The notes under the pieces are model-generated. The model ran no database searches. It was not told where the DNA came from and saw only the letters and a program-made list of their open reading frames with translations. A DNA stretch of 64,000 nt from Bacteroidota bacterium (GTDB lineage: Bacteria > Bacteroidota > Bacteroidia > JABDFU01), in assembly GCA_016183775.1 (NCBI GenBank), contig JACPDY010000002.1:16060-80059 (forward strand), given 5' to 3'. How positions within the stretch are numbered: the first letter of the stretch is position 1; every line of letters starts with the position of its first letter. Shown here in pieces: positions 33,055 to 57,864 of the stretch. The position numbers were made by a program, and so were the translations under genes.

Positions 33055-34611
33055 ATGAAAACAAATTCTTCCGAACTATTTGACACGATCAAATCTCTAA
33101 GCACACAGGAGAAAAAACGAATCAGAAAAGAAATGTCTCAAAATAACAAAGACAAAAAAACACTATTATTATATGATCTTATCGACAAACAAAAAAAATT
33201 TGACGATGCCGCTATTCAAAAAAAACTGGGTCATCCTAAATGGTACCCGCAGCTAAAAAAATATTTACTTGAACGTCTTACCGATAAAATATTCAGCGGA
33301 AATCCCGATAAAAAAAACTACACTTATGTGCTCAGGTTAATAACCATTGCCGAACAATTTTACGCGAAAGGATTGTTTAAACAGTCACAAAAGAAATTTG
33401 AACAAGCCGCCGACACCTGCAAAAAAAACGACTGGCTGGAATATATCCCGATCATCAATGCCAGGCTTAGCAATATTATAGGCACTAAACACGAGCAAAG
33501 AAAAAATTACATTTTTTATACAGAAGCCTACCAGGCTTTAAATCAATCCTATTTGGAAAAAAAATACTCGCTCTTGTTTCGCTGTTTGGAATTCTCAAAC
33601 AAAACAATGCAATCAAAACAACTTATAAACAATCTGAATATAAATGAATGCTTATCTGATGAAACGCGCCTGACTACCCTGCTTCAAAAACTGCATTACT
33701 ACCAATTTTTAGCTTCCTATTATAAAAACATTGAAATCAATCATAGCCAAAGCTATTTCTATTGCAAAAAATATCTCGATGTTGTAGTGAAAAAAAATCA
33801 GGAAGATGAAAATAAAAATGCGGCTTCCGAAAGCCAGAAAACTTCGCGCGAAAGAAATAATATTGTAGGCTTGCTTAATGTAATCGTCGCGGCAATTAAT
33901 GCAAATTTATTTGAAGATTTAAATGCCCTGTATCTATCATTCCTTGACCTGAAAAATAAGTTCAACATAAAGGATGATCACAGTCTGGCTCTCCTGTTCG
34001 AGGAAAGCCGTTTAATTCTTTACCTGTTAATTTCCACTTCTAATATCACAAGACGAGGATTGGAACATCCGGATTTCGATTTCTATCTCAGGCAATTTTA
34101 TCATAATGAAAATAAACTACCCCGGCCAACATCAACATCCTGCAATGAACTCATCGCTTTCACCTTCTTTATGAAAAAAAAATGGGCCGATTGCACCGCT
34201 TCAATTAATAAAATAGTAAATGACAACGAGATCTACAAAATTTATTCAGAAACATACGCTAACATACTTCTTCTCCGGCTATTCGTGAATTACGAAACAG
34301 GGGATCTTGATATCCTGGATTTCAACCTGAAGAAAACGGAACGATATTTCGGGAAGCGCTATTGGGCTTTGCCATACGAAAATCTGATATTGTCATTTTT
34401 CAACGAAATAACAATCAACGGTCAGGCTGCTCACTTCAACATATTGAAGAAATACAAGAGCCATCTGGATCACTTACTATTAACTGACAGATCATTCGCA
34501 GCAACGTATTTAGCTGAAAGAATATTTATTGATTTCGGCTGTTGGCTCGATTCCAGGATCACCAATAAGCCACTTAGAGATGTGTTAAAAGAAAAATGGA
34601 ATAAGAATTGA
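33055..34611 (+). CDS. ~517-aa family protein A (AT-rich, Lys-rich, predicted cytoplasmic alpha-helical); function unknown
   Basis: No signal peptide; MKTNSSELFDTIKSLSTQEKKRIRKEMS N-terminus shared with paralogs at 46514 and 53230; stop is 6 bp from the stop of the convergent giant gene 34618..37404. Confidence 0.6.
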   Translation: MKTNSSELFDTIKSLSTQEKKRIRKEMSQNNKDKKTLLLYDLIDKQKKFDDAAIQKKLGHPKWYPQLKKYLLERLTDKIFSGNPDKKNYTYVLRLITIAEQFYAKGLFKQSQKKFEQAADTCKKNDWLEYIPIINARLSNIIGTKHEQRKNYIFYTEAYQALNQSYLEKKYSLLFRCLEFSNKTMQSKQLINNLNINECLSDETRLTTLLQKLHYYQFLASYYKNIEINHSQSYFYCKKYLDVVVKKNQEDENKNAASESQKTSRERNNIVGLLNVIVAAINANLFEDLNALYLSFLDLKNKFNIKDDHSLALLFEESRLILYLLISTSNITRRGLEHPDFDFYLRQFYHNENKLPRPTSTSCNELIAFTFFMKKKWADCTASINKIVNDNEIYKIYSETYANILLLRLFVNYETGDLDILDFNLKKTERYFGKRYWALPYENLILSFFNEITINGQAAHFNILKKYKSHLDHLLLTDRSFAATYLAERIFIDFGCWLDSRITNKPLRDVLKEKWNKN

Positions 34612-34617
34612 ATTGCA

Positions 34618-37404
34618 TCAAGGCACGGCAAGATCAATATTTATGCTGCAGCCGTTTTTATCTTTTATATTTATAGTATAAGCACCCGGGCACAGCTGAT
34701 TTTTATATCTCCTGGCAGATCCATCGGGCCACAAATAAGTGTACGGGCCGGTGCCGCCTGTGGCAGTTACAAGTATCCATTCTTTGCATCCGCATGCTGT
34801 ACAACCAGCGGCACCTTTGGCAAACTGACCAATTAAATTACATACAGTGCAAGGGCTAATAGTTATGTTTATGCTTTTGCTGCTGCTATCGCAGGTGGTT
34901 TTTGCTTTAAGCTGCACAGTGTAATTGCCTGGTGTTGTATATACTATACCTGTTGGGTTTTGGTTAACTGAGGCAGCGGGGGTACCGCCCGGAAAACTCC
35001 AGGTATAGCTTACAACGCTATTATCGCAACTAATGGAAAAATTGCCTGTGAAATTTATTGGTGTGTTGTTGCATAAAGGGTTAGTGCTTGTTGAAGCGAC
35101 GAGTGCGGTTGTTTTATCAAAGCCACAACTGTTTTTGTACAATTGGGCTACAAAGGCATCACTGGTTCCGCCCCCATAAACCGTTTGATGTGCTGCGGGA
35201 GTAACGGGATAGCTACCCCCGACATACCCCGTCATATATACAAAGCAGCCATAAAGGGTTATAACACATTCTTCATCATGAGGTATTGCCGGACTGCCTA
35301 CGTAGGAGGAACAAATGAGCTGTCCAGCCTGACTAAAGTGAGTAACAAAGCCATCTTCTTCACCTCCTAATGTTTGCTGCCACGCGCAGGAACTTACGGG
35401 AAAGTTTAAGCTATAGGTATCTCCCGATACATAAACGTCATTTGTAAGTTGATCCACCGCGACAGACAGCGCATAATCACGATCCGATCCTCCCAGGTAA
35501 GTTGCCCAGATACGACTTGCAGCGCCTCCGGCACTGTCAAATTTCACAAGAAAGGCATCATAAAAAACACTGCCACCAAAAACATTTTGAAATCCACCGG
35601 CAGCGATACCAATAGCGCTGGTGGTCTGGCCAGCCATATACACATTTCCTGCTACATCGGTGGCCACGCTGTTACCCCCATCATAAGCCGTTCCTCCATA
35701 GTAAGTGGCCCAGAGGCGTCCGCCTGAGGTGGAGTTAAATTTCACAAGAAAAGCATCAGTACCACCGCCCAAAACATTTTGAAACCCACCTGAAGCGATG
35801 CCTGCAGTACTGGGAGTATTTCCGGCAAGATATACATTTCCTGATGCATCGGTGGCTACGCTTTTACCCATATCATCACCTGTTCCTCCGTAGTAAGTGC
35901 CCCAGACACGGGATCCAGCCCCGCTAAATTTCACAAGAAAGGCGTCAAAAGTTCCGCCTCCAAAAATATTTTGAAATCCAGTGGAAGCGATACCGGCAGT
36001 GCTGACTGTATATCCGGCCAGATACACATTTCCCAATGCATCCGTGGCTATGCTTTGACCATAATCACCACTCATTCCTCCATAATAAGTAGCCCAAAGG
36101 CGGGTTCCTGACACAGAATTAAATTTTACAAGAAAGGCATCAAAAGTACCCCCAAAAATATTTTGAAATCCGGCGGAGGCTATACCTGTAGTGCTGGTGG
36201 TTTGGCCGGCAAGATAGATATTTCCTAATGCATCGGCAGCTACACTTTTACCCTGATCACTACCAGTCCCTCCATAGTAAGTGGCCCAGAGACGGGCTCC
36301 GGCCCCGTTAAATTTCACAAGAAAAGCATCCGCGCCTCCGCTCTTAACATTCTGAAATCCAGCGGAGGAAATGCTTGCAACGCTGCTGGTCCAACCGCCT
36401 AAATATACATTTCCCGATGCATCGGTTGCTATGCTGGTCCCAGCATCACCACCTGTTCCCCCATAGTATGTTACCCAGGGGTCTACCACTAAAGCATGTT
36501 CCGGGTTCCAGGTTCCAAGTTCAAATGTTACAAGCCCCTCTCCGGCTCTCCCCGGGAGGGAGAGAGTTAAATTGTAGTTAGCTTTTACATCAACAATTTT
36601 CCCGTTTATGTTTTGGTAAACTCTGGGTATTGATTCGGTAAATTCGTTTACACTTGTTTTAATTACCAAACTGCCTTCGCGATTAATGTGTATGCTTTCG
36701 GCTCCGCTCCAGCGAAGTTTAATTTGATTGGGGTTGGCATGGGGTTGTACTACCAGATCATACTTTATCCCCTGCCTGTCCGTCAGGCAAGCATTTTGCT
36801 TGTTACCATAATAGGTTATGTCAATACCATCATAAATATTTTTGTACGTTACTTTGTTGTATTGCTTTACGTTTAATACTCCATTGGGGCAATGCGCGTA
36901 GTAGTAATTGTTGTAGCCCTCTATTTCATCTTCATTAACAAACCTGCAGTTAGCATTGGCTCCGGCAAAATCCATATCAACCCTATTTACTTTAATTTTT
37001 TCATCACGCATTAATTCATCTTGTTTCGTATCCTCATCGGCTTCGGTTAATGTTCCGGCATTAATTAATGCTTCCACCTTTTCGTGAACTTTGTATTGGA
37101 CTTCGCCCATATTGTTGTACACATAACTAATGCCGCTTTTGCGTAAATAAATATCAGCACCCCTGCTTTCACCTTTATATAAAATATCGGGACAAAGATT
37201 ACCATTCATATCAGCTACCTGACCTTTATTAGGGATAAAACATAATCCGTTGCTACCCAATAGTTTCCCGGTTTGGGCATTTCCCAAAGCATATGTTTGT
37301 TGAGCATGGCTATGACTCACCATTAACCCAATCCCAACAAAAAATAAAATATTTTTTATCCCCGACGAGAGGCCAAGTCGTTTATTTTTGCTTTTTGATT
37401 CCAT
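34618..37404 (-). CDS. giant secreted SBBP beta-propeller surface protein with PKD-like domain and conserved Cys-rich C-terminal module (paralog 4)
   Basis: Signal peptide ...ILFFVGIGLMVSHSHAQQ; ENKGQ-type N-terminal domain (PNKGQ...QPHANPNQI); ~9 SBBP repeats (ATYYGGTG.D.G.SVATDA.GN.YLAG.T.ST.GIAS.GFQN..GG..DAFLVKF); PKD-like segment; C-terminus ...CTACGCKEWIL...DLAVP-stop. Confidence 0.75.
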   Translation of the reverse strand: MESKSKNKRLGLSSGIKNILFFVGIGLMVSHSHAQQTYALGNAQTGKLLGSNGLCFIPNKGQVADMNGNLCPDILYKGESRGADIYLRKSGISYVYNNMGEVQYKVHEKVEALINAGTLTEADEDTKQDELMRDEKIKVNRVDMDFAGANANCRFVNEDEIEGYNNYYYAHCPNGVLNVKQYNKVTYKNIYDGIDITYYGNKQNACLTDRQGIKYDLVVQPHANPNQIKLRWSGAESIHINREGSLVIKTSVNEFTESIPRVYQNINGKIVDVKANYNLTLSLPGRAGEGLVTFELGTWNPEHALVVDPWVTYYGGTGGDAGTSIATDASGNVYLGGWTSSVASISSAGFQNVKSGGADAFLVKFNGAGARLWATYYGGTGSDQGKSVAADALGNIYLAGQTTSTTGIASAGFQNIFGGTFDAFLVKFNSVSGTRLWATYYGGMSGDYGQSIATDALGNVYLAGYTVSTAGIASTGFQNIFGGGTFDAFLVKFSGAGSRVWGTYYGGTGDDMGKSVATDASGNVYLAGNTPSTAGIASGGFQNVLGGGTDAFLVKFNSTSGGRLWATYYGGTAYDGGNSVATDVAGNVYMAGQTTSAIGIAAGGFQNVFGGSVFYDAFLVKFDSAGGAASRIWATYLGGSDRDYALSVAVDQLTNDVYVSGDTYSLNFPVSSCAWQQTLGGEEDGFVTHFSQAGQLICSSYVGSPAIPHDEECVITLYGCFVYMTGYVGGSYPVTPAAHQTVYGGGTSDAFVAQLYKNSCGFDKTTALVASTSTNPLCNNTPINFTGNFSISCDNSVVSYTWSFPGGTPAASVNQNPTGIVYTTPGNYTVQLKAKTTCDSSSKSINITISPCTVCNLIGQFAKGAAGCTACGCKEWILVTATGGTGPYTYLWPDGSARRYKNQLCPGAYTINIKDKNGCSINIDLAVP

Positions 37405-37409
37405 AATAC

Positions 37410-39071
37410 TTATGGTGTTGTAAGGTTAACATTTACACTACAGCCATTTTTATCTTTAATGTTTATAGTGTAAGCGCCGGGACACAGATCATTTTTGTAC
37501 CTGTTAGTATATCCATCCGGCCATAAATAAGAATAAGGGCTTGTTCCTCCTGTTGCAGTTATCATTATCCATTGTTTGCAGCCGCAACCGGCACAACTGG
37601 AAGTTCCTTTAGTGAATTGCCCGGCAAGCAAACATCCACATGAACTTACTGTTATATTTTGTTTCAATGTATCAGTGCCACAAGCATAACTGAGCACCAG
37701 CTTAACAGTATACGTTCCGGCACCACTAAATGTATGATTTGCACTATTAACAGTGGAAGTATTGTTTATACCAGAGGCCGGGTCGCCAAAATTCCACAAA
37801 ACAGAACTAATAGCATTTGAAGATCCGGAACAGTTCGTAACATTAACTTGTGGCGCCGTAAAAATTCCATTCAGACAATTGACAGATGCCGTAAATGGTG
37901 GCGGTGGTGGCTTAAAATAATAGTTTACAAAATTCGGGAACCCATTCCTGATTATCCTTCCTGATAAAGCAACTCCATTTACTACAAAATTACATCCAAC
38001 ACCAAGCGTGTTCGGATTATTAATAACTCCTGCCCAGCTTCCTTGCAATAAGGCAACGTATATTTTTTTATCCGGACCTAACTGAAGAGCACCCCTGAAA
38101 GCAGCTGGTGTGTTGATCAGAATTCCGGAATTAGCTACGGCTGCGTTAGAGCCTGCGCAAAGGTTAAACTGGTAAATATGACCGGAGACACAAGCCCCAT
38201 ACATTTTTGTACCATCAGGTGAGAATTCTACACCATATAGAATACTGCCGCCGGCAGATAACGGCAACACGATACCGTTGGAAACCACTCCTGTTGAATT
38301 ATTAAAATCAAATAACTCAAAACTCATACCCTGTACCGCGGAACCAAGCTTTTTTCCGTTCGGAGATGCTTTTAATTGTCCGTGTGTATTCAGAACAGAG
38401 CCATTAACCACAAGACCGGCGTTGCTCACAACCGGCACTGTGTTAACACCTGCAGATGTAACGAGATAAGTACGGAAAGCGTTTGAATTCCAGTCATGTG
38501 TTACCACCCATACATCTTTGTTATTGCAATGTCTTACTCCCGCTATTTTTTCACAAGAGGGCGTGTTAAGCAGAATGTTTTTGTTGGCTGTTACATTACC
38601 AAGCCCCGCGTTCAGGGTCATATCAACTTCTGAATATCTTATCCCTCTTAGTTGTGCTTCATAGTCTGCTGTAAATATATAATAGATTGTGGTACTTCCC
38701 GGTTTTTGGATAATTACAGACGATTGTGTTGAGGAATTATGACCCATCAAACCAAATCCATTGGGCATCTGGATGTGATTTTTGTTCCAGACAAATGTTC
38801 CATCGGTATAAAAGAGCAGGTTTCCAGCCACGTCAGATATGGAGGCACACCCTTCTGATGCAAACATTTGACCATCAGTAACTGCAACGGGAGGCCCAAA
38901 ATTAAAATGCAAACCCGCATTCTGCCCAAAATACCACCAGTTTGCTTCACCCTGTGCATATACTTCATCATTAATTCTCAGAAAAAAAGGAGAAAAGTAA
39001 AGGAAGACAATTGCCAAATGAATTTTAAAAAATTTCTTATGGTAAAGGCATCTTTCTATCTTCATGGTCAT
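37410..39071 (-). CDS. secreted protein with a distinct non-SBBP N-terminal domain, PKD domain and the same conserved Cys-rich C-terminal module
   Basis: PKD motif WNFGDPASG...HTFSGAGTYTVKLV; C-terminus GQFTKGTSSCAGCGCKQWIM...NLTTP-stop; 5 bp downstream of 34618..37404. Confidence 0.65.
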   Translation of the reverse strand: MTMKIERCLYHKKFFKIHLAIVFLYFSPFFLRINDEVYAQGEANWWYFGQNAGLHFNFGPPVAVTDGQMFASEGCASISDVAGNLLFYTDGTFVWNKNHIQMPNGFGLMGHNSSTQSSVIIQKPGSTTIYYIFTADYEAQLRGIRYSEVDMTLNAGLGNVTANKNILLNTPSCEKIAGVRHCNNKDVWVVTHDWNSNAFRTYLVTSAGVNTVPVVSNAGLVVNGSVLNTHGQLKASPNGKKLGSAVQGMSFELFDFNNSTGVVSNGIVLPLSAGGSILYGVEFSPDGTKMYGACVSGHIYQFNLCAGSNAAVANSGILINTPAAFRGALQLGPDKKIYVALLQGSWAGVINNPNTLGVGCNFVVNGVALSGRIIRNGFPNFVNYYFKPPPPPFTASVNCLNGIFTAPQVNVTNCSGSSNAISSVLWNFGDPASGINNTSTVNSANHTFSGAGTYTVKLVLSYACGTDTLKQNITVSSCGCLLAGQFTKGTSSCAGCGCKQWIMITATGGTSPYSYLWPDGYTNRYKNDLCPGAYTINIKDKNGCSVNVNLTTP

Positions 39072-39166
39072 AAATAATTTTCATTTTCATAAAAACTTAT
39101 CGGTGTGCTTTCTTTTACATTGCCATGTTGTATGATCCAGATTGTTACATGTTCCTTATGAAATAA

Positions 39167-40321
39167 CTATTTCAATTTAACATTTTTTATTGTGTGAATA
39201 TGATCCGGCTGTTTTTTTACATGATAAAAATCAAGCACATTTCCCAAATAAGTATCCGCCTTAGGCAACGGAACCCCGACAATATCTAATATACGTCTCG
39301 TTTTTTTATTTTCAAAAACCTGTTTATCTGCTATAAACTCTAAAAACATAGACAGATTTTGTAACTTTTTTTTATTCTTTATGTTAGAAAATATACTAAA
39401 AATGAACAGCAGAAATTTAAAAAGCCTTAATGGAACCAACCTGGTAGTTGGGATAGCGTAGTTCTTGCTTTTGTAAAACTCCTGAACTTTTTTTGCAAGT
39501 TCCTGAATTTCGATGGATTGCCCGGGCCCCGAAGTAAGGTGAAGTATTTTTCCAATCGTGGACGTTTGCTGCGTTGACCAGACAATAACTTTAGCCACAT
39601 AATCAGAAGGCACAGTATCCAGTTTTACATTTTTTATTTGGGGAAGAAAGCCTGCGGTATATTTCCCTGTTAAAAAATCTGTTAAGTGATAAAAAATCTG
39701 GAAATGAATAGTTTTTCCTGTAATAGAATCGCCAACCACCATGCTCGGCCTGTGAATAGTTATCGGCCAGCCTATATTTATTTTTTGTAAAACCAGTTCT
39801 TCCGCTTTTGTTTTTGACGACTCATAAGTATTATGAAAGGCTCTTGGCGTAATAAGCGGCGTTTCAGGGATGCTGCCCGGCATTTTACCGGCAATACCTA
39901 CCGTGCTTATATATTCGATTTTTTCAAGTGTGCCATTTTGTAAACATAAATCAGCCAGCTGCAATAAATTTTCTGTGGAACGTACGCTTGAGCGGTGCGC
40001 CTGCTCCTCCGTCATATTCATTTTAACAGTGGCCGCACAATGAATAATATGTGTTATAGAATGAATGATCTCTTTAAATATAGTTGGATTTATGCCAAAC
40101 CCATCTTCAGTAATATCGCCACGGACCGGAATTAGTGTTGGTACATCTGCATTGAAATCCCAATACGCTAACAGGTCATTGAAACGTTCTGCCAACTTTT
40201 CGTCAGATTCAGCACGCAGCAAAAGATAAACCCTGGATGGATTAAGTTCCATCAGGAAAGGCACTATGCTGCTGCCCAGGGCTCCAGAGGCCCCTGTAAG
40301 AAATATAGTTTTTAGTGACAT
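39167..40321 (-). CDS. NAD(P)-dependent thioester/fatty-acyl reductase (NAD_binding_4, male-sterility-type SDR)
   Basis: Rossmann motif LTGASGALGSSI; catalytic YESSKTKAE; 384-aa length typical of the thioester-reductase family; overlaps the upstream ligase stop. Confidence 0.6.
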   Translation of the reverse strand: MSLKTIFLTGASGALGSSIVPFLMELNPSRVYLLLRAESDEKLAERFNDLLAYWDFNADVPTLIPVRGDITEDGFGINPTIFKEIIHSITHIIHCAATVKMNMTEEQAHRSSVRSTENLLQLADLCLQNGTLEKIEYISTVGIAGKMPGSIPETPLITPRAFHNTYESSKTKAEELVLQKINIGWPITIHRPSMVVGDSITGKTIHFQIFYHLTDFLTGKYTAGFLPQIKNVKLDTVPSDYVAKVIVWSTQQTSTIGKILHLTSGPGQSIEIQELAKKVQEFYKSKNYAIPTTRLVPLRLFKFLLFIFSIFSNIKNKKKLQNLSMFLEFIADKQVFENKKTRRILDIVGVPLPKADTYLGNVLDFYHVKKQPDHIHTIKNVKLK

Positions 40322-42027: not shown

Positions 42028-42048
42028 GATGTTGAAATTTTTATTTAG
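41857..42048. repeat. 192-bp direct repeat, copy A (5' end plus RBS of the acyl-AMP ligase gene)
   Basis: About 93% identical to 44371..44562. Confidence 0.8.
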
Positions 42049-42079
42049 AATTAGTTTCCTGTTGTTTTTTATTAAAAAT

Positions 42080-42751
42080 TTATTTGTTGATGATAATTTT
42101 TTTTGCCTCAAGTATGTATTCGGGACAGATAGATAGCGGGATTAATTGAATAAAATAAATTCCGGTTTGTTGGTTGCTTAAATCAAGCCCTGTTTTTTCT
42201 CCGATAATTTTAGTTTTAAAAATAATTTGTCCCAGAACATCCGTAATAATCACATTACTATTTTGTTCTGCTCCCTCAATAATGAATGTTCCTGTGCCTG
42301 GGGTGGGGTAAATAGTAAATTCTGTAATTCTATTGCAACTAACCGCCACTAAATTAAAATAGTTATACTGCCCGTTAAAGTCGGTTTGTTTTAAACGGTA
42401 GTACGAAGTTCCATTCAATGGTTCATTATGGGCAAAAGTATAAGACATGGTTTGGCTGCTGTTGCCAGTACCATCAATGATGCCAATAATTTCAAAGTTA
42501 ACACCATCTATAGTTCGTTCAATGGTAAAATAATCGTTATTTATTTCTGATGCCGTTGCCCACATTAAATTTACTTTTCGGTTATTGCATTTCGCTTCAA
42601 ACGAAAGTAACCCAATTGGTAAAGGCACTTCACTACCCACAGAGCCAACACAACTAAACGAAAAGCCATCATCGTTTCCTACCGAATAAATTTGGGAAAA
42701 GGTATTTGAAAAACATCCCATTAATACAAAAAACAATAGATTTACTCTCAT
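42080..42751 (-). CDS. small secreted protein with fn3-like domain and T9SS type-A C-terminal sorting domain
   Basis: Signal peptide MRVNLLFFVLMGCFSNTFSQ (start 42751); C-terminus ...TEFTIYPTPGTGTFIIE...ITDVLGQII...GIYFIQL = Por_Secre_tail; internal LPIGLLSFEAK...NNDYFTIERT...YYRLKQTD domain shared with 51139..53045. Confidence 0.65.
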   Translation of the reverse strand: MRVNLLFFVLMGCFSNTFSQIYSVGNDDGFSFSCVGSVGSEVPLPIGLLSFEAKCNNRKVNLMWATASEINNDYFTIERTIDGVNFEIIGIIDGTGNSSQTMSYTFAHNEPLNGTSYYRLKQTDFNGQYNYFNLVAVSCNRITEFTIYPTPGTGTFIIEGAEQNSNVIITDVLGQIIFKTKIIGEKTGLDLSNQQTGIYFIQLIPLSICPEYILEAKKIIINK

Positions 42752-42789
42752 GATTTTAATTGGTTGATAAATAATAAAAACAACCCCGG

Positions 42790-44541: not shown

Positions 44542-44562
44542 GATGTTAGGATTTTTATTTAG
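44371..44562. repeat. 192-bp direct repeat, copy B (provides start codon and RBS for the FGE-like gene)
   Basis: About 93% identical to 41857..42048. Confidence 0.8.
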
Positions 44563-45661: not shown

Positions 45662-45702
45662 AAAATTGTTTCGTTAAGATTGTGAGATGAATTGATTTCG
45701 CA

Positions 45703-46323: not shown

Positions 46324-46513
46324 GTGTCTGATGATTAGGTTTCTGTCTGTTTGCTTTATTTAAAAGTATTTCAATAGAATCCGGATTCATAAACATATAT
46401 TTGTATTAATTTTGTTAGTAAAAGCATAATAATTTTTCAATTGACTGATTATCAAATATTTAATAATATATTAATGCTGTTAGTAAAGAGGTAAAAATTT
46501 AAATATTACACCT

Positions 46514-48070: not shown

Positions 48071-48078
48071 AAATTGCA

Positions 48079-51000
48079 TCAGGGTACTGCAAGATCAATA
48101 TTTATGTTACAGCCGGTTTTATCTTTAATATTTATAGTATAAGCACCCGGGCACAGCTGATTTTTGTATCTCCTGGCAGATCCATCCGGCCATAAATAAG
48201 TGTATGGGCTTGTGCCGCCTGCGGCAGTTACCATTATCCACTCTTTACAGCCGCAGGTGGTGCAACTGGCGGTGCCTTTGGTAAATTGGCCTGTTAAAGC
48301 AGGTAGTGAAATTATTGCAGCGGTAGAACTTGCGGTGCAGCCTTTTGAATCAGTTACGGTTACTGTATAGTTGCCCGTAGTAAGCCCAGTGGCTGTTTGC
48401 GCGGTTTGTCCGTTATTCCAGAAATAGGTATAAGCTGCAGTACCATTTGTGGCTGTTATAGTGGCGCTACCCAATCCAGAACAGTTGGCATTTTGATTAC
48501 TTATTAAGTTTAAACTTCCGGCACTTCCTGTGAGACTATAATAAATGGTATCTCTGTTGCATGTCGCATCAGTTACTTCTACCCAATAAGGGCCAGGACA
48601 CAGGTTTGTTATAGTATTTGCAGCACTTGAACTGTTGATCGTATTATTACCATTACTCCATATGTAATTTAATGGCAGAGCTCCACAATTTGTTACGGTT
48701 ACTGTTGCGGTGCCATCACAGGCACAGGACGATATATTAACCTGCGTAGATGTATAAGTAGGTAAAACGGGGGTAAATTTCAAAATGAAAGAATCGTCAA
48801 GTCCATTCGGTGTGTTATCGAAATACGCCGATCCTCCGGGATTAAACAATGGTAACGCTGTACCTGAAGTATAATTCAAAAATTCCCCAGCCAGAAATAA
48901 ATTTCGATCATTATCAATTGTAAGAGAATAACGCAAATCTTCACCATTGCTTCCGATGTATGATGCCCATAATAGCTGCCCATTACTTGTAAATTTTGTA
49001 ATGAATATATCGAATGGAGGAGGAGACCCTGTTCCTGCTCCAAAAATGCCATCAAAATAAGTTCCGCAACCAGGATTTAGTGTAGTAATGTCTGTAGATC
49101 TGGTGTCAAATGAAACATATAAATTACCACAATTATCCGTTTGAATATTGTCGAATGTTTCATAAAAGGCTCGGATTTCATCGTTGCTCCCTCCATAATA
49201 GGTGGCCCATTGACGAATGCCGGCATTATCGAATTTTAAAATAAAAACATCTTGTGTACCACCTAATGCACCATCAAAATAAGTTCCTGCATTTTGAGTT
49301 GGAAAATCCGAAGATTTTGTAACTCCCATTAAAAACATATTACCGGATACATCTATGGTAATGGAATGACCTTCATCACTATTACTTCCTCCATAGAAAG
49401 TCGCCCATTCCCTAATTCCGGCATTTGAAAACCTAAGAATAAATGCATCTCCAAATCCTCCTCCTCCAAATACAGCATCCAAATAGGCGCCAAGGAATGG
49501 TCCTGTTCCGGCCTGGATAGGAAAATCGGTTGAACTTGTAATTCCCGTTATATAAATATTTCCTGAAGCATTGGTTTTTATTGAATAGCCATTGTCAGCA
49601 CCACTTCCTCCATAATAGGTAGCCCAATCGCAGTTACCGGTAGCTGAAAAACGAAGAACAAATCCATCCTGTGCTCCTCCTAATGCCGAATTAAAATAAG
49701 CGCCTCCCCATGACTGTACAGGAAAATCAATTGATCGGGTGCTCCCGGTAATATATATGTTCCCTAAAACATCACTATCTATTGAGTATCCATTATCAAA
49801 ATTATTTCCACCGTATAAAGTGGCCCAATCCCTGGCTCCTGTATTGGAAAACCTAAGAATAAACACATCACTTCCTGATGAGCCTAAAACATTATCAAAA
49901 TAAGCAGAACCCCATGCCTGGGCAGGAAAATCGAATGAAGCGCTATATCCGGCAACATAGATATTTCCTGAAATATCAATTTCTATAGATATTGCATAAT
50001 CAGAGTTACTCCCTCCGTAATAAGTTGCCCAATTTAAAATTCCCGAATTCGAAAAGTTGACAATAAAAGCATCAGTTGGCGATCCTGATACTCCTTGGAA
50101 ATATGCACTACCCGATGATTGTGTTGGAAAGTTTGTTGAAGTCGTGTACCCAGCAACATATATGTTTCCACTTGCATCACAATCCATACTCATTATACCA
50201 TCTGCTGAGTTTCCACCAATAAGTGTACCCCAGGTTAATTGCGGATCAATTATTAATGTAGAAAGATGATTTAATGATGAAGTAATAAAGGAAAAGGTAA
50301 TAGTAGTTTGGTAATAATCATCGCACTGTTTGGTACTTGTTAATTGAAACTTGCTTGCTACTTCCTGATCGGTTTCCTGGATATAACTATAAGGGGCATT
50401 TTCAGTTAGTGTACCTCTATCGGTTTTAAGTTTTATTTCACCATGGTTGTTTAATTTCAATTGGTTTAGTGATGAGTAAACAAGTTGTATCTGGTTAGGA
50501 TCGGCCCCGGGATGAACAATAAAATCGTACTTAAATCCTTTATCACTGGAATTATATAATACCCAGTCTATTCCCGGATAAATTTTCCGGATGACAATTT
50601 TGTCAAATTGCTTTACTCCGTAAATACCTTCGGGACAATGCCCGTAGAAATAATTATAGTCGCTTGTAGAAGGATTTTCTTTACAGACATTTTCCTTTTT
50701 TATACTTGCGTCTTTCAGTTCCATATCCACCCGCTCCCATTTGAAAATGATATTTTCATCACTCTCCGTAAACATCTTTACTTTGTTTTCCCTTTCAGTT
50801 TGTTCGTCTTCCTTTTCTTCTGCCTGAAGAAAAGTATAGGTGATTCCCCTTTCGGTTATATACATATCCAGACCAGGTACTTCTGCTTTAAACAATACAA
50901 AAGGCACAGGATTCCCTTCCATGTCTGTCATTTGGCCTTTGTTTTCCAAAAATTTAACCGATTGATTCTGCATCCAATGCCGGATTTGTTCTTTAGAATC

Positions 51001-51138
51001 GGGCGTACCGGTTTTATTATTATTGGCGGCAAAAGCAAGCAAATTGCTTACAATAAAAAATATTGTATTAAAGAAATATGTTTTTACCCTAACGGGATGT
51101 GGCATATTTATTTTATTAAATTGCGCTATAATTTCCAT
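48079..51138 (-). CDS. giant secreted SBBP beta-propeller / SprB-repeat surface protein with conserved Cys-rich C-terminal module (paralog 5)
   Basis: ENKGQ...HPGADPNQI N-terminal domain; ~8 SBBP repeats (W.T.YGG.N.D...SI..D.SGN.Y.(A/T)G.T.S.DFP.Q); SprB-type repeats; C-terminus ...CTTCGCKEWIM...DLAVP-stop. Confidence 0.75.
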   Translation of the reverse strand: MEIIAQFNKINMPHPVRVKTYFFNTIFFIVSNLLAFAANNNKTGTPDSKEQIRHWMQNQSVKFLENKGQMTDMEGNPVPFVLFKAEVPGLDMYITERGITYTFLQAEEKEDEQTERENKVKMFTESDENIIFKWERVDMELKDASIKKENVCKENPSTSDYNYFYGHCPEGIYGVKQFDKIVIRKIYPGIDWVLYNSSDKGFKYDFIVHPGADPNQIQLVYSSLNQLKLNNHGEIKLKTDRGTLTENAPYSYIQETDQEVASKFQLTSTKQCDDYYQTTITFSFITSSLNHLSTLIIDPQLTWGTLIGGNSADGIMSMDCDASGNIYVAGYTTSTNFPTQSSGSAYFQGVSGSPTDAFIVNFSNSGILNWATYYGGSNSDYAISIEIDISGNIYVAGYSASFDFPAQAWGSAYFDNVLGSSGSDVFILRFSNTGARDWATLYGGNNFDNGYSIDSDVLGNIYITGSTRSIDFPVQSWGGAYFNSALGGAQDGFVLRFSATGNCDWATYYGGSGADNGYSIKTNASGNIYITGITSSTDFPIQAGTGPFLGAYLDAVFGGGGFGDAFILRFSNAGIREWATFYGGSNSDEGHSITIDVSGNMFLMGVTKSSDFPTQNAGTYFDGALGGTQDVFILKFDNAGIRQWATYYGGSNDEIRAFYETFDNIQTDNCGNLYVSFDTRSTDITTLNPGCGTYFDGIFGAGTGSPPPFDIFITKFTSNGQLLWASYIGSNGEDLRYSLTIDNDRNLFLAGEFLNYTSGTALPLFNPGGSAYFDNTPNGLDDSFILKFTPVLPTYTSTQVNISSCACDGTATVTVTNCGALPLNYIWSNGNNTINSSSAANTITNLCPGPYWVEVTDATCNRDTIYYSLTGSAGSLNLISNQNANCSGLGSATITATNGTAAYTYFWNNGQTAQTATGLTTGNYTVTVTDSKGCTASSTAAIISLPALTGQFTKGTASCTTCGCKEWIMVTAAGGTSPYTYLWPDGSARRYKNQLCPGAYTINIKDKTGCNINIDLAVP

Positions 51139-53045
51139 GCATTATTTATTGACGATCAATTTTTGTTTATAAATAGAGTTATCGGATGTTGCGGAAATAA
51201 TATAAACACCGGGTGAAAGTGTATTGGAAGGATCAATCGCTACAATATTTTCACTATGTTTCTCTAATACAATTATTTTTGATAAAATCTCCGCTAATTA
51301 TGTTTTCCATCATAGTCAGTTTGCTTCAGCCGGTAGTAATTTATTCCTTTTAGCGGCTTCGAATCAATTAATTCATATTCCAATTTTGTTGTATTGTTAC
51401 CGGCGCCCTTTATTGTTTGCACTAAGTCGTAATTTGAACCATTCCCCGAACGCTCAACGGTAAAATAATCATTATTAGTTTCTGTGGCTGTTGACCAGTT
51501 GAGTTTTACAAATGACTTTTCAGATACCGCGGTAAATCCAAGTAATTCAATTGGAAGCCAATTTACCTGTGAGATTGAAGCAAGGGCAAATGGACTAAAA
51601 CTTGTAACCGCGGCACTTGAAACAACTGTACCGGAAGTGGTGCTGCCGGTTGTGCCGCCATTACCATAATCCTGCCACTTTGTTCCGTCCCACTTTGCAA
51701 CAGTAAGGTCAGTCAATGAAGCTACATTACATAACGGCAGCGCTATTGTGTTCCAGGATAAAGTAACCGTCGCATCGCCAGACCCGGACGCTTGATCTCG
51801 GTTTAAAATCCAATATTCACACTGACTTATGTTATCTATTGTACTCACTTTAGAATAATGTGAGTACATAGGGTGAGAATCTGCATTATAGTATTCAGTC
51901 ATAAACTCAAGACCATTTCCACAACACGTGTTAGAAATAGAAATAGCGATTGGACGATAATAACTTCCCTTTCCAACCGGAAATGTAAATGGATCGGTTC
52001 CTATTTTAGAACAAGCTCCGGAAATAAAACTGTTATTGTTTGCCCCTGATACCATCACGCCACTACCAAACTTAAGAATATTGACAGGACTGGTTATAGG
52101 ATCGGTTATAAGAATACCTTTAACAAACGTAAGTGTTTGACCAAAATAATTTAACAAACAACCGGATAACAAAGTGATGTTGTTTCCCGTCTTATTGATC
52201 GTTATATTTCCATCAAAAAGACCGGCAGCACCGGTCAGATCAAAATTTTGATTATTACCGCCTGCAAAAATTAACTCCCCTGTACCCCCATCAAAACCGG
52301 AGCCGACTGTTACAGTGCCCCTTGCTTCAATCTTAGCATTAGATACTCCATTCGTGTAAGAAAGATCATTGGAAACATCAATAGTATCACCTACAGCAGT
52401 AGCTATTATGGTGAAAGCGCCGCAGGTTCCTGTAGCATTAATGGTAAAGTTATAAAAGCTTGTAGATGTTAACAGGTCAATAGTAAATGTACGGGTCGCG
52501 CAGGGAGAGCTTCCGGGATTAAGGGTAAGTGTACCATTGTTATGATTAAATGTGCCGGCACTATGAGTAAATAACGTTGGGCTGGTGGTCCATGTTCCAC
52601 CAATAGAAAAAATTCCGGATGTACCAGTAAAATTCCCCCCTGACAAAGTAAACGTCCCTACATTAATAGTAATGGCAGAAGAGCCTCCTGTAAACGCACC
52701 ACTTGATACACTAAAATTCGAACTTCCAACGGTAATGGTATTCGTGCCTTGTGAAACAGTGCCGGTATATCCGGCTATTGAAAAGCCCGCTACATTAACC
52801 GCAGCATCAATACTACAATTGCCATTTTTGGTTCCTGCGCCGCCATCAAAAATAGCAATATCACCCGACCCCGGAACCGATGCACCTCCCGCTCCATTTG
52901 AACTGGCAGACCAGTTAGCTGTATTGTTCCAGCTGGAGGCTCCCACTGATACCCAGTATCGGTTAGCGGAAAAACAACAGGAAAGTAACAGAAAAGAAAG
53001 AAACATAATTAAAAGTAACGTCAAATGTGATTTTTGGGATGTCAT
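51139..53045 (-). pseudogene. T9SS type-A cargo protein, apparently frameshifted between passenger and C-terminal sorting domain
   Basis: Main ORF 51294..53045 ends ...YRLKQTDYDGKHN-stop. A -1 frame continues AEILSKIIVLEKHSENIVAIDPSNTLSPGVYIISATSDNSIYKQKLIVNK-stop, a classic T9SS C-terminal domain, ending at 51139. One extra A in the AA run at ~51296-51298 would fuse them. The intact paralog 42080..42751 has the same fn3-like domain in frame with its C-terminal domain. Confidence 0.55.
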
Positions 53046-53229
53046 TATATTTTAAAATTCAATAATGTGAATCAAAGGATTCACTGAAATGATATAACAT
53101 GCAATATATCCCTACATATAATATTCTACAAAACATCTTTCTATGAATTATTAATTTTCTGATTTTAACATTATATGCATTTTCAATCAATAAAAGCATT
53201 AATTTTAATAAAAATATTAATTCTCTGTT

Positions 53230-54780
53230 TTGAAAAAAAATTATCTGTTTACATTAATAAAATCTCTAAATATGTCGGAAAAGAGATATATAAAACTGTC
53301 ATTAAGGAAAAATGCAATTGGGGATAGCAGCAATTATCTTACACTCTTTGATATGATCGCTGCTCAAATAGAATATGATGAAAAAGCCATCAAAAGAGAT
53401 TTGGTAAATTATTCTTTGAAGAAGAATTTTGCCGTGACTAAGCTTTATCTATATCATTTGATTTTACGCACACTCAAAAATTTTCACTTTGAAACCTCTA
53501 CAGACATGTTGTTGGCAGATAAAATACAACAGGCTAATCTTTTACTTGATAAAGAATTATTCGATCAATGTGAAAATATTACTCTTAAAGCCTTATCAAT
53601 TGCTAACAAACACGAACTTAAGCTTAAGACCATTGAACTTTTGGATATTGAATTACGAGCACTTCAAGGACAACTGCAAATCAAAAAAATAAAAGAAAAG
53701 GCAGAGAAGTACTATAGAATGAAGCAAAAATTATGGGAACAGCAAGAACAGATATTTTACCTGCAAAAAATTGCGTATAATAATTTCGTCCAATTGAAAA
53801 CAGAATGGGTGACAGAACTAGAACAAAAAACCATTTTCAAGTCACCGAGTCAAATAAAAGAAGGAGATTTACTTTCCATACATGCTAAAATATTATATCA
53901 CCACGTCTGGAGCGGCTATTTATTCTCCGTAAATAAATCTGAAAAAACTTTCAAACATTTGATGAAGCTGGATATGTTATTTGACAAAAACCCGCATCTG
54001 ATCGGAGATTATTGTAATTTATACATTTCTATGCTAAACAATCTTAATGTTGTTTTATTGGGGCGTAATGATTTCAAGAGAGTTCTTCTTAACATAGAGA
54101 AAATGAAACTATTGAAAATGCGCTCTGTAGAAGGTCGAATACGTGTGCGCGAACGCCTGGTTAGTGCTGAAATGAGTTTGCATAAGCATACCGGAGAATT
54201 TGAGAATTCCCTGCCATTAGTGAATGAGGCAAACAAGTTGCTTGAAAACAAAAAACTGAGTGAGGTATATCGGATGGTATTTAATTTACACTTGTTTATT
54301 TACTATTTTGCGTTTGAGGAATACAAAACAGCACTTAGGTTTTTGAATCATTTCCTATCCGGATCAAGAAAAAATATTCGTAAAGATTTACATAAAACGG
54401 CACGCTTACTTTATATGATTACGCATTACAAACTTCGTAATTTTGATTATCTTGAATCATTCTTAAAAAACGCAGTACGATCTTTCAACAGCAATGAGGG
54501 CATGGATAAAATGGAAAGACTATTCCTTTCATTCTTCACTAATATTATTTTGATTACTAAAGAGGATGAAAGGCGATCACATTTTTTGACATTTAAATTA
54601 GCCCTCGAAAAACTTGAAAAGCAAAAAATAATGCTTGCAACGTATTTTTATAATTTCAATTTTTCTGATTGGGCAGAGGCAGAAATGACTAATAGAAAAT
54701 ACAAAGAATTTGTTTATGAAAAATTTCATCCGGACGCGTTGGCAAAATATACAAAACAGTTTAAAGCCCGAATAAATTAA
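53230..54780 (+). CDS. ~517-aa family protein C (divergent paralog of 33055 and 46514)
   Basis: LFTLIKSLNMSEKRYIKLSL... aligns with LFDTIKSLSTQEKKRIRKEMS; same length (516 aa), same AT-rich composition, convergent with giant gene 54844..57864 (63 bp apart). Confidence 0.5.
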   Translation: MKKNYLFTLIKSLNMSEKRYIKLSLRKNAIGDSSNYLTLFDMIAAQIEYDEKAIKRDLVNYSLKKNFAVTKLYLYHLILRTLKNFHFETSTDMLLADKIQQANLLLDKELFDQCENITLKALSIANKHELKLKTIELLDIELRALQGQLQIKKIKEKAEKYYRMKQKLWEQQEQIFYLQKIAYNNFVQLKTEWVTELEQKTIFKSPSQIKEGDLLSIHAKILYHHVWSGYLFSVNKSEKTFKHLMKLDMLFDKNPHLIGDYCNLYISMLNNLNVVLLGRNDFKRVLLNIEKMKLLKMRSVEGRIRVRERLVSAEMSLHKHTGEFENSLPLVNEANKLLENKKLSEVYRMVFNLHLFIYYFAFEEYKTALRFLNHFLSGSRKNIRKDLHKTARLLYMITHYKLRNFDYLESFLKNAVRSFNSNEGMDKMERLFLSFFTNIILITKEDERRSHFLTFKLALEKLEKQKIMLATYFYNFNFSDWAEAEMTNRKYKEFVYEKFHPDALAKYTKQFKARIN

Positions 54781-54843
54781 CTTGATTTTTGTTTTTACTA
54801 ATTTATTTTTCATCAAAATGTATCACTATTATTCACTAAAAAC

Positions 54844-57800
54844 TCATGGAACCGTTAGATTAACATTAATACCACACCCATTTTTGTCTTTAATATTTAT
54901 AGTGTAATTGCCCGGACAAAGTTGATTTTTATACCGGTTTATATATCCATCCGACCATGTATAAGTATACGGAGTTGTTCCTCCCGTAGCCGTGGTCATT
55001 ATCCACTCCTTGCAGCCACAACCTGCACAGTTGGCTGTACCTTTTACAAATTGTCCAGCCAAAGCGGAAGGCGAAATTATTACAGCTGTTACAGTTGAGA
55101 TACAGCTGCCTGCATCGGTAACTGTAATTGTATAAGAACCGGCAGTTATACCATTGAATTGATATGTGGCGAAAGTGCTTATGGCACTCACTCCTGTACT
55201 CCAGCTATAAGTATAAGGTCCGCTGCCATTACTTATTGTTACTGATACAGAACCTGTTCCGACACTGCATGCCGGGTTACTTAAAACAGTGCTTTGAGCT
55301 GATAAAGAACACGCGCAGCTGTTAACAACAATATTTTCAGTTAACGAATCTTTATTACACCCGTCATCAACAACCAGTTTTACAGCATAGGTTCCGGCAA
55401 CAGCATATATAATACCTGAAGGATTTTGTTGGGCGGAAAAATTGGGTGTGCCACCTGCGAATGTCCAGCTATAAACAGGAACAGCACCGGAGCAGCTTGT
55501 GGTATAGCTTCCATTAAAATTTTGCGCTGAATTGGGACAAAAGCCGTTGTTGTTTGTAAATGCTATGGTGCCAACTGTTGGTGATCCGCACATGGAAGCA
55601 CATAGCGATGCGATCACAAGATCATAACTTCCGGCATTTGTCGTTTGAAATGCGCCCGGAGTTACAGGAAAAACGGGAAATGCATATCCCAATAAGAAAA
55701 CAGTGTTCTTATATATGGCTATACAATTACCGGGTAATGTTTCATCATCCTGCACAGAATTTCCCCCGACATAGGTTGAACAAATAAATTGCCCGTTAGG
55801 GTCGAAATGAGCAAAGAACAGATCTTCCTTCCCGCCGAAAACAGACTGGAATGCACAGGTGCCGATTGGCATATCAGATGAATATGTATCTCCTCCCAGA
55901 TAAATGTCATTATTGCCATCCGTAATTACGCCATTACCCTCTTCCCTGCCGGCAGTACCTCCATAATAAGTCGACCATAAACGATTCCCGGCCGGATCAA
56001 ATTTTATTATAAAGGCATCTGACGCTCCTTTCCGAATGATTTGAAACGCACCTGCCGTTACAGGAAGATCAGGAGAATAGGTCAATCCGGAAACTATAAC
56101 ATTCCCGATATTGTCAGTTGTTACACTTTGACCAAAGTCAAAATCGCTGCCTCCATAATAAGTGGCCCATAAGCGTCCGCCTGCCGGATTAAATTTGACT
56201 ATATACGCATCTTCCTTTATTCCGTTAAGCGCTAACTGAAACGCCCCTGCTGATACAGGAAAATTTGCCGACTTTGTTTGTCCCGTTATTATGAAATTCC
56301 CACTGCTATCTGTGCTTATCGCATTATACATATATTCATCGGCAGTTCCTCCATAATAGGTGGCCCATAAGCGGTTGCCGGCAGAATTAAATTTCACAAC
56401 AAAAGCATCCCACAGTCCGGCCTTTGTCAGCTGAAATGCTCCTCCCGTAACAGGAAAATTTGTCGATTCTGTACAGCCTGTTATAGCTATATTTCCACCT
56501 ATATCAGCAACTACCCCAACCCCATAATCTCCTGAACTACCTCCATAAAAAGTCGCCCATAAACGGGCTCCTGCAGGGTTAAATTTTACCACAAATGCAT
56601 CCGAAGTACCACCACCGGAAACACCCTGGAACGCCCCGGCCGTTACCGGAAAATCAGTCGAGTAAGTAATACCTGTAATGGATATTTCATTGCTCCCGCT
56701 TTTATCAACACAAATACCTCTGCCTTCTTCACCAAATGTTCCTCCATAATAGGTGGCCCATAAACGGTTACCTGCATTATTAAACTTTACCACAAAGGCA
56801 TTAGAAAATGACTTTTGAACTACTTGAAACGCCCCGGCAGTTACGGGAAAATCGAATGAAGACGTTGCCCCCGTAATCACTATATTCCCATTATTATCCG
56901 TGTCTATGCCCTGCCCTTGCTCAACATCACTGCCACCGTAATAAGTGATCCAGGGGTCAACCACCAAAGGAAATGAAGAATTAAAAATTGAAAATAAAAA
57001 ATGAACGATCACCTCATTGTTTGATAAATACTCAAGCCTGTATTCCGTTTTTACATCAATAATTTTCCCATTTATATTTTGATAAACCTTTGGCAATACT
57101 TCCGTCATTTCTGCAATGGAGTTTTTAATTCTTAATTCTCCATCTTTTATTTCCACCTCATCCGCTCCGCTATACTTTAACTTTATCTGATCCGGATTTC
57201 CTCCCGGTTTTACTATTATATCATATTTTAACCCCTGCCTGCGAGCCGGGGTGCCCTCCGGCTGGCAAGCCTGCCCTTTTGCCCCGTAATATTTCAAATC
57301 TATATTGTTATAAATATTCTTTATAATCACTTCATTATATGAATTCACTTTCAGTATTCCCTGCGGACAATGTGGATAATAATAATTAGAATAACCCTCC
57401 AACTGATCTCTCTCATATATCTCCGGGTCCCGGTTACAGTTTATAAAGTCAACATCCACACGATGGAAGTTCAGCTTTTGGTTTGCTATACGTTCTTGTT
57501 TTACATTCCTGACGGCAGCCTGGTTATTTTGCTCATCATTTCTATTGTTTCTTTCTATCTCTTCCTCCCGTTCGTCAGCTTCATGCATTATCTCTCCCAA
57601 ATCACCCAGCACATAACTGAGACCGGTTTTACGCAGATATATCTGTGCTTCGCCTGCATTCCCTTTGTACAGCACTTCGGGGCAAAGATTACCACCCATA
57701 TCAATTATCTGTCCATTATTTTTTGTAAAGCACAACCCATTTCCCCGCTCAGCCTCATGACCGCCCGGATGAGCAGTAGTAGTTCGCGCAGACTTCTCAA

Positions 57801-57864
57801 AATTACCTGCGGCAAATAAATTTCCCGATATAAAAACGACTGTAATGATAAAACTTTGCCTCAT
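54844..57864 (-). CDS. giant secreted SBBP beta-propeller / SprB-repeat surface protein with conserved Cys-rich C-terminal module (paralog 6)
   Basis: Signal peptide MRQSFIITVVFISGNLFAAG; N-terminal domain KNNGQ...KPGGNPDQI; ~8 SBBP repeats; SprB-type repeat; C-terminus ...CAGCGCKEWIM...NLTVP-stop. Confidence 0.75.
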   Translation of the reverse strand: MRQSFIITVVFISGNLFAAGNFEKSARTTTAHPGGHEAERGNGLCFTKNNGQIIDMGGNLCPEVLYKGNAGEAQIYLRKTGLSYVLGDLGEIMHEADEREEEIERNNRNDEQNNQAAVRNVKQERIANQKLNFHRVDVDFINCNRDPEIYERDQLEGYSNYYYPHCPQGILKVNSYNEVIIKNIYNNIDLKYYGAKGQACQPEGTPARRQGLKYDIIVKPGGNPDQIKLKYSGADEVEIKDGELRIKNSIAEMTEVLPKVYQNINGKIIDVKTEYRLEYLSNNEVIVHFLFSIFNSSFPLVVDPWITYYGGSDVEQGQGIDTDNNGNIVITGATSSFDFPVTAGAFQVVQKSFSNAFVVKFNNAGNRLWATYYGGTFGEEGRGICVDKSGSNEISITGITYSTDFPVTAGAFQGVSGGGTSDAFVVKFNPAGARLWATFYGGSSGDYGVGVVADIGGNIAITGCTESTNFPVTGGAFQLTKAGLWDAFVVKFNSAGNRLWATYYGGTADEYMYNAISTDSSGNFIITGQTKSANFPVSAGAFQLALNGIKEDAYIVKFNPAGGRLWATYYGGSDFDFGQSVTTDNIGNVIVSGLTYSPDLPVTAGAFQIIRKGASDAFIIKFDPAGNRLWSTYYGGTAGREEGNGVITDGNNDIYLGGDTYSSDMPIGTCAFQSVFGGKEDLFFAHFDPNGQFICSTYVGGNSVQDDETLPGNCIAIYKNTVFLLGYAFPVFPVTPGAFQTTNAGSYDLVIASLCASMCGSPTVGTIAFTNNNGFCPNSAQNFNGSYTTSCSGAVPVYSWTFAGGTPNFSAQQNPSGIIYAVAGTYAVKLVVDDGCNKDSLTENIVVNSCACSLSAQSTVLSNPACSVGTGSVSVTISNGSGPYTYSWSTGVSAISTFATYQFNGITAGSYTITVTDAGSCISTVTAVIISPSALAGQFVKGTANCAGCGCKEWIMTTATGGTTPYTYTWSDGYINRYKNQLCPGNYTINIKDKNGCGINVNLTVP

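Follow-up and report, generated by a model that had tools for sequence, protein, structure and literature searches.

RusR-superfamily proteins as candidate one-component regulators of neighbouring surface-protein operons in a Bacteroidota genomic island

A stretch of 64,000 nucleotides from a Bacteroidota genome (contig JACPDY010000002.1; hereafter the window), matching a Bacteroidetes metagenome-assembled genome with locus tags HYU69_, carries three paralogous plus-strand genes, regA, regB and regC, each of which meets tail to tail a minus-strand gene encoding a secreted protein with SBBP repeats. Our analysis favours, at somewhat better than even chance, the view that their products are one-component regulators of the RusR superfamily which serve neighbouring surface-protein operons and are stacked with them in tandem. 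The tail-to-tail abutment itself looks like ordinary genome packing, and the family is the more interesting by-product: it is very large, lacks a Pfam model, counts only RusR as a member that has been studied, and gains here the structure-based hypothesis of a helix-turn-helix (HTH) head joined to a TPR sensor.

Three paralogous genes abut genes for large SBBP proteins

An open reading frame (ORF) scan reproduced exactly the coordinates, strands and stop-to-stop gaps given in an earlier sequence-only reading of this DNA. The gaps amount to 6 bp between regA (33055..34611, plus strand) and SBBP_B (34618..37404, minus strand), 8 bp between regB (46514..48070, plus) and SBBP_C (48079..51138, minus) and 63 bp between regC (53230..54780, plus) and SBBP_D (54844..57864, minus). 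The plus-strand genes encode proteins of 518 aa (regA), 518 aa (regB, from a GTG start) and 516 aa (regC, from a TTG start). They are paralogous, as had been proposed: regA and regB share 62% amino acid identity, and regC, a distant paralog, is 24% identical to either, yet aligns end to end. The minus-strand partners had been called SBBP giants, of which the SBBP identity is right; with 928–1019 aa, however, they are large and not giant. They possess a signal peptide, a DUF7948 domain, SBBP beta-propeller repeats, PKD and/or SprB domains (by Pfam, PKD in SBBP_B, SprB in SBBP_C and both in SBBP_D) and a shared Cys-rich C-terminal module of 72 aa.

The putative regulators belong to the RusR superfamily

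All three plus-strand products match the NCBIfam model NF058569 (BT_2802_fam), and the family profile matches TPR proteins, which overturns the former statement that they have no recognisable domain. The NF058569 matches range from E 4e-35 to 5e-17, with 62.2, 61.7 and 121.8 bits; regC gives the closest full-length match of the three, its residues 2–493 aligning to model positions 2–500 (E 4e-35, 121.8 bits), and regA and regB are collinear over their full length with the family (~500 aa) in the family alignment. As the curated cut-off of 550 bits is not reached, we treat the proteins as homologous superfamily members and not as strict RusR-family members. Likewise, all 36 sampled family members, the window three included, match NF058569 below the cut-off (best E 3.9e-68), and all sampled members come from Bacteroidota. 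A profile search for the ~515-aa family, covering 1.84 billion cluster representatives, yielded 11,414 clusters (50% identity) with E <= 1e-3, of which 6,043 also passed E <= 1e-30; among the matches listed (150), nearly all were 500–530 aa long and matched end to end. BT2802, that is RusR, is a candidate activator of the ribose locus of B. thetaiotaomicron, is needed for ~90% of the response of the neighbouring rus genes to ribose, and has been reported to contain DNA-binding motifs (bioRxiv 10.1101/574913; PMC12596196).

In agreement with the earlier description as Lys/Asn-rich proteins devoid of a signal peptide, the three regulators are rich in K, L and N and show neither a signal peptide nor a transmembrane segment (maximum Kyte–Doolittle 19-residue mean <= 1.46). 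A Pfam scan of the three gave no match, including none to a DNA-binding domain; on other family members, Pfam returned weak TPR matches in some only (best E 4e-4). When compared with the PDB, the family profile matched the TPR domains of HOP and kinesin light chain, and the AlphaFold2 model is all helical (predicted local distance difference test score, pLDDT, 83.9). Remote homology and structure prediction, the follow-up suggested in the sequence-only reading, thus gave a RusR-superfamily assignment and an all-helical TPR-type model.

The N-terminal part of the model resembles sigma region 4/LuxR-type domains and not XRE-type HTH domains, and corresponds to the most conserved and most basic region of the family (consensus LFxLIKSLxKxEKRxFKLY...). 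For this N-terminal domain, neither Foldseek nor a sequence profile gave a match in the PDB; because they do not confirm it, we hold the predicted HTH assignment with moderate confidence. In regC, the TTG at 53230 recovers an N-terminal helix conserved family-wide, and the public annotation begins 14 codons later (502 aa; the additional codons occupy 53230–53271). Taken at face value, the model describes a regulator with an N-terminal sigma-region-4/LuxR-like HTH domain, by which it would bind DNA, and, over the next ~430 aa, a TPR solenoid as the presumed binding site for a ligand or a partner.

The HTH assignment without Foldseek or sequence support, together with the Pfam scan that detects no DNA-binding domain, would also suit a protein that does not bind DNA at all, namely a cytoplasmic TPR scaffold or chaperone acting on the surface proteins (as cargo before export) or on enzymes of the island. 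We consider such a scaffold unlikely. RusR, the only studied relative, affects transcript levels (bioRxiv 10.1101/574913). Further, members of the wider family also lie beside cytoplasmic metabolic operons (leuA/ilv, acetyl-CoA synthetase and the rus polysaccharide utilization locus). Finally, the topology of a lone, divergently transcribed gene is that expected of a regulator.

Linkage to secreted-protein genes recurs, the convergent partner varies

The genetic association of this regulator subfamily with DUF7948/SBBP or other secreted-protein genes recurs outside the window. Close homologs are rare: they formed nine 90%-identity clusters, and a search with the close alignment gave one locus (L007) in species-representative genomes but nothing in the metagenome collection. 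In every close context, from at least six metagenomic organisms, the regulator adjoins a secreted-protein or DUF7948/SBBP gene. The subfamily is repeatedly linked to large, fast-diverging secreted surface proteins. Six outside contexts (L003, L004, gene P0008 of L005, L008, L009 and the distant L017) have a divergent secreted-protein operon. This operon includes a DUF7948/SBBP gene in L003, L004, L005 P0008 and L009, a Por_Secre_tail gene in L008 and Por_Secre_tail/SprB genes in L017.

The individual arrangements differ. In L001–L003 (81% identical to regA), a DUF7948-SBBP-PKD gene lies on the divergent side and a co-directional uvrD downstream. L004 (60%) has a divergent DUF7948-SBBP gene and, at 8 bp, a convergent gene for a TPR/TMTC protein. 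P0008 of L005 (56%) is divergent from a QueC-like/FeeM/478-aa/DUF7948-SBBP operon and followed by an integrase gene; the regC-like gene L005:1664-3244 is divergent from a gene for a 593-aa protein with no Pfam match and convergent, at 384 bp, with the DUF7948-SBBP gene of P0008. On another contig of the metagenome-assembled genome to which the window belongs, L008 (56%) has a divergent Por_Secre_tail gene and a convergent PKD-SprB-module gene at 40 bp. L009 (55%) combines a divergent Por-tail/Por-tail/DUF7948-SBBP operon with a convergent SpoIIE phosphatase gene that overlaps the regulator gene by 6 bp, and L007 (38%) has co-directional unknown genes upstream and a convergent DUF7948-SBBP-SprB gene at 56 bp.

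Conservation of the convergent pairing, proposed previously as a check, did not hold: the partner may be a co-directional uvrD, a TPR/TMTC, a SpoIIE or an integrase gene, and its orientation is variable. A convergent module-bearing gene was present in three outside contexts (L007, L008 and L005:1664-3244). Genes of the wider family also abut or overlap convergent neighbours of unrelated kinds (−4, −14, +2 and −4 bp). Distant members adjoin a leuA/ilv operon, acetyl-CoA synthetase genes (2-bp gap), Por-tail/SprB proteins or an unrelated secreted 938-aa protein whose gene overlaps by 4 bp. In almost every context the family gene stands alone between neighbours of the opposite strand, its 3′ end tight to the next gene, and the other convergent gaps within the window measure 20, −13, 35, 176 and 102 bp. 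The 6–8 bp gaps thus look like ordinary compact gene packing, and the arrangement is not special.

Nor are three tail-to-tail regulator/SBBP pairs clearly more than chance would give. The two other transcription units that close with a module-bearing gene adjoin icd and a TauE gene, with no regulator, and once units of a minus-strand operon and a plus-strand regulator are stacked in tandem, three convergent junctions arise automatically. Along the plus strand, the island between icd (21713-22942) and uvrD (58025-) reads as follows: three DUF7948 genes (minus) and regA; the 11.7-kb operon B (minus) and regB; 51294-53045 with SBBP_C (minus) and regC; and SBBP_D (minus). We envisage 23119-57864 as a tandem stack of operon-plus-regulator units, in which the last gene of an operon would be a module-ended SBBP gene, hence necessarily tail to tail with the previous regulator. 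Each regulator of the subfamily would be dedicated to an adjacent set of DUF7948-SBBP-PKD-SprB genes with their accessory genes, and its target would most often be the operon lying back to back with its own conserved promoter, which it would presumably activate rather than repress. If the regulators do control the adjacent operons, the island would serve to select between alternative surface proteins, and the family might provide the one-component sensors still missing for many Bacteroidota loci.

Several observations weigh against this reading. The sole SBBP gene linked to the L007 regulator is convergent, and its upstream genes are co-directional and unknown; L008 and L005:1664-3244 also carry a module-bearing gene on the convergent side. 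The SBBP protein encoded beside the 81%-identical homolog of L003 shares no more than 27–29% identity with the SBBP proteins of the window, and a clean co-phylogeny is thus lacking. Analysis of the shared spacers identified no operator, and the close contexts number about ten in all, three of them being those of this window. More generally, SBBP bodies across genomes are ~27–45% identical in a star-like pattern, which renders co-phylogeny with the regulators uninformative, with one exception that speaks for divergent pairing: the product of 26614-29592, in the operon divergent from regA, shares 68% identity with the SBBP from the corresponding divergent operon of the L009 regA homolog. Within the window, SBBP_A, SBBP_B and SBBP_D group at 42–44% (SBBP_A and SBBP_B at 42.5%), SBBP_C groups with 26614-29592 (44%), and SBBP_B and SBBP_C share 35%. 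These similarities fit divergent pairing better than convergent pairing, the closeness of regA and regB going with that of SBBP_A and SBBP_B, and regC and SBBP_C both being outliers, which, with three points, is a weak hint in favour of the divergent operons as targets.

The lack of orthology between the SBBP neighbours of orthologous regulators would equally be expected if regulators and surface proteins had no functional link, merely residing together in a fast-evolving island that grows by module recombination, with the regulators acting elsewhere. In line with this, the island lies between the housekeeping genes icd and uvrD, its modules evolve in concert (see below), and the genome behind L001–L003 has its regA-like gene directly beside uvrD and does without the 23 kb of 34618-57864, which implies an insertion in the window or a deletion there. 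However, the secreted-protein neighbour present in every close context, in varied arrangements, is hard to obtain by hitch-hiking alone. Furthermore, distant members from two organisms share the order LytTR, family gene, overlapping small ORF and RecX, and the retention of this context indicates that neighbourhoods in the family are maintained. Mere co-residence therefore appears doubtful to us.

In those two LytTR/RecX loci (L012 6266-8680 and L014 7329-9747), a LytTR-only protein is encoded divergently upstream, an ORF of 71–80 aa overlaps the 3′ end of the family gene convergently, and recX follows. The regC-like branch may originally have had this neighbourhood.

Upstream spacers and transcription across the junctions

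The divergent spacers of regA (32540-33054), regB (46324-46513) and regC (53046-53229) are 515, 190 and 184 bp long. An alignment of spacers from seven loci revealed a conserved element, GATACRGAATCAAAAACATATATTTGTATATATAG (also written GATACRGAATCAAAAACATATATTTG), common to the spacers of regA, regB and their homologs and followed ~60 nt later by a palindrome centred on AATATATT. Within the window, the promoter-like element occurs twice, both times on the plus strand: as TCAAAAACATATATTTA at 32682..32698 upstream of regA and as TCATAAACATATATTTG at 46387..46403 upstream of regB. regC and more distant members are without it. Inside the conserved element there is a TAnnTTT(G/A) box, which we take to be the Bacteroidetes −7 element. 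Judging from this sequence conservation, the alignment shows what appears to be a promoter-like control region in the shared spacer that belongs to the regA/regB regulators themselves.

An exact scan of metagenome contigs with the promoter element returned 120 loci, none of which encodes a family member by hidden Markov model search, and these were set aside as chance AT-rich matches. A sigma-70-type promoter scan gave counts equal to those in shuffled sequence, the sigma-70 model being uninformative for Bacteroidota.

The unusually long regA spacer also contains a nested GC-rich palindrome of ~100 nt (32842-32943), with 31-nt arms that are 84% complementary and an inner 12-nt hairpin. The window has one copy of it, the equivalent spacer of L003 has none, and it may be a small inserted palindromic element.

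At the opposite end of the regulator genes, no terminator-like hairpin was predicted at any of the three regulator/SBBP junctions, and folding of all three on both strands was no more stable than that of shuffled sequences (z +0.6 to +1.5). The Lys-rich tail of regA and regB (AAA/AAG codons) produces on the minus strand a U-rich tract just past the SBBP stop, behind a weak AU-rich stem, which by its sequence is not a canonical terminator. Given that no terminators are predicted, overlapping antisense transcripts are possible. Accounts in which the convergent pair is a functional unit build on this point, the antisense overlap tuning regulator and SBBP through transcriptional interference or antisense RNA, and would also be in keeping with the convergent module-bearing genes of L007 (56 bp), L008 (40 bp) and L005:1664-3244 (384 bp) and with the junction sequence common to two of the pairs. 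We nonetheless rate antisense tuning as unlikely. The downstream partner is not conserved for homologs 55–81% identical to regA; similarly tight or overlapping ends join unrelated partners both in the family and in the window (20, −13 and 35 bp); the similarities among the regulators are not mirrored by those among their convergent SBBPs; and the junction identity can be explained by a younger pair of modules, as described next. The functional pairing that had been suggested for each regulator and its partner (as chaperone, regulator or immunity-like protein) survives in part: the regulator option is favoured and the linkage recurs, but the convergent SBBP is not a fixed partner.

Homogenisation of the C-terminal module as a probable source of the duplicated junction

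The C-terminal module is SprB-repeat-like, with the pattern GQFxKGTAxCxGCGCKxWIMVTAxGGTSPYSYxWPDG...NIKDKNGC...P-stop. It ends eight minus-strand genes of the window (3′ ends at 23119, 26614, 29621, 34618, 37410, 48079, 54844 and 63031) and is also terminal in proteins of L001, L004, L005, L007, L008 and L009. We rejected the module as a standard sorting domain of the type IX secretion system, since none of the eight module-bearing proteins matches Por_Secre_tail (PF18962, type A) or CHU_C (type B); Por_Secre_tail is present in the window genes 42080-42817 and 13915-14853.

DNA similarity is unbroken between 33056-34837 and 46515-48298, with 69.6% identity, and ends at the regulator start codon. 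The gene bodies of regA and regB are 50–80% identical at the DNA level, and sliding identity reaches 88–93% in about 34592-34790 only, an interval made up of the module, the spacer and a few codons at the end of the regulator gene. The two junctions had been described as near-identical; the sequence is indeed shared across both, at 88–93% and within that limited interval. The high-identity stretch as a whole (34592..34837, counterpart 48050-48298) is apparently a tract homogenised after the regulator duplication.

Synonymous divergence (dS), obtained by the Nei–Gojobori calculation, was compared between the two parts. Synonymous sites of regA and regB are saturated (proportion of synonymous differences, pS, 0.79), while the modules ending at 34618 and 48079 differ with a dS of 0.66. 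Values for other module pairs were 0.75 (26614/29621) and about 1.05–1.08 (23119/26614 and 23119/29621), and no regulator lies between the members of these pairs. The dS range of 0.66–1.08 indicates, at the level of sequence, that the repeated module has probably been homogenised among neighbours by concerted evolution. With a module dS of 0.66 against saturated regulators, high junction identity can come from module homogenisation, which would account for the ~90% identity across the two junctions. This weakens the proposal that regulator end and module propagated together as one cassette, since copying as a unit is not required.

Likeness to known systems

RusR (BT2802, NF058569) resembles regA, regB and regC in its full-length homology over ~500 aa, its size, the lack of a Pfam domain and its position as a stand-alone gene beside a presumed target. 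It differs in that the window proteins score 62–122 bits against the 550-bit cut-off, that three copies lie within 22 kb here, and that RusR adjoins ribokinases and SusC/D, whereas the window regulators adjoin DUF7948/SBBP genes and lipid-type biosynthetic genes (FeeM, acyl-AMP ligase).

The general plan predicted for the window proteins, a cytoplasmic one-component protein with a small N-terminal helical or DNA-binding domain and a TPR solenoid that may bind a ligand, is that of the RRNPP receptors known from Firmicutes and their phages (Rap, NprR, PlcR, Rgg, AimR), although generic TPR proteins score almost as well. There is no sequence similarity to them, the window proteins are ~130–200 aa longer and the host belongs to Bacteroidota. 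In addition, the RRNPP N-terminus is an XRE-type HTH or a Rap-type 3-helix bundle, in contrast to the sigma region 4/LuxR-like domain predicted by our model. No adjacent propeptide gene in the RRNPP style was apparent in the 6–63 bp downstream of the regulators or in the regA spacer, whose short ORFs look like chance. As to regulators that unite a LuxR-type HTH with TPR (MalT/LAL), the HTH of MalT/LAL-type proteins is C-terminal and an ATPase domain is present, unlike the window proteins, in which the HTH-like domain is N-terminal and there is no NTPase. Excludon-type convergent pairs, finally, are like the window in having genes 6–8 bp apart tail to tail with no predicted terminator. They are, however, defined by a long antisense transcript, which for the window would be hypothetical; its regulators have no conserved convergent partner, and equally tight junctions are common in this genome and in the family.

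Neighbouring genes and further features of the island

The unit divergent from regA consists of three consecutive minus-strand DUF7948 genes (29621-32539, 26614-29592 and 23119-26586, by Pfam), the left end of which is convergent with icd. Operon B, divergent from regB across the 190-bp spacer, comprises upstream genes at 37410..46323 (minus; Pfam, NCBIfam) and closes with SBBP_B. It encodes a FeeM-type N-acyl synthase, a PP-loop amidotransferase, an FGE-sulfatase-domain protein, a Por_Secre_tail protein, an acyl-AMP ligase, an NAD_binding_4 reductase, a PKD-module protein and SBBP_B; gene spacings run from overlap to 95 bp, with 5 bp separating SBBP_B from the preceding gene 37410-39071. Upstream of SBBP_C, the unit divergent from regC opens with a gene (51294..53045, minus; 184-bp spacer) for a secreted 583-aa protein with no Pfam match, the C-terminal region of which is 47% identical to part of the product of 42080-42817. 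SBBP_D is divergent from uvrD.

Two independent loci include a FeeM-type gene among those divergent from the regulator: it comes first in operon B of the window (45703-46323) and second, after a QueC-like gene, in L005 (8418-9263) and L006 (1908-2753). BLAST detected no similarity between the two FeeM proteins, nor any sign that the FeeM or PP-loop gene of the window is orthologous to that of L005. The FeeM fold is related to that of acyl-homoserine-lactone synthases. A speculative extension, to which we give an outside chance, is that the ~515-aa family could be a large class of one-component ligand sensors, each with a sigma-region-4-like HTH and an RRNPP-like TPR receptor, with RusR as one branch; the paralogs of the island would each switch on a different variable adhesin operon, and FeeM synthase and regulator could form a signal-synthase/receptor circuit in the manner of LuxI/LuxR.

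Within operon B there is a 195-bp direct repeat of 95% identity (41854-42048 and 44368-44562). The repeated segment is the beginning of the acyl-AMP ligase gene (MESILTIPEFL...), of which a second copy heads the FGE-sulfatase-domain ORF at 42790-44541; hence, the ~2.5 kb between the copies (the FGE-sulfatase-domain and Por_Secre_tail genes) seems to have been inserted into operon B or to have arisen there by duplication. A large serine recombinase gene (Resolvase, Recombinase and Zn_ribbon_recom domains; 808-2499), located at the window's left end, may mark a mobile element. At the right border of the island, uvrD is split into the overlapping ORFs 58025-59539 and 59536-60435 by a frameshift, representing either a pseudogene or an assembly error, and is intact (804 aa) in L001 and L002.

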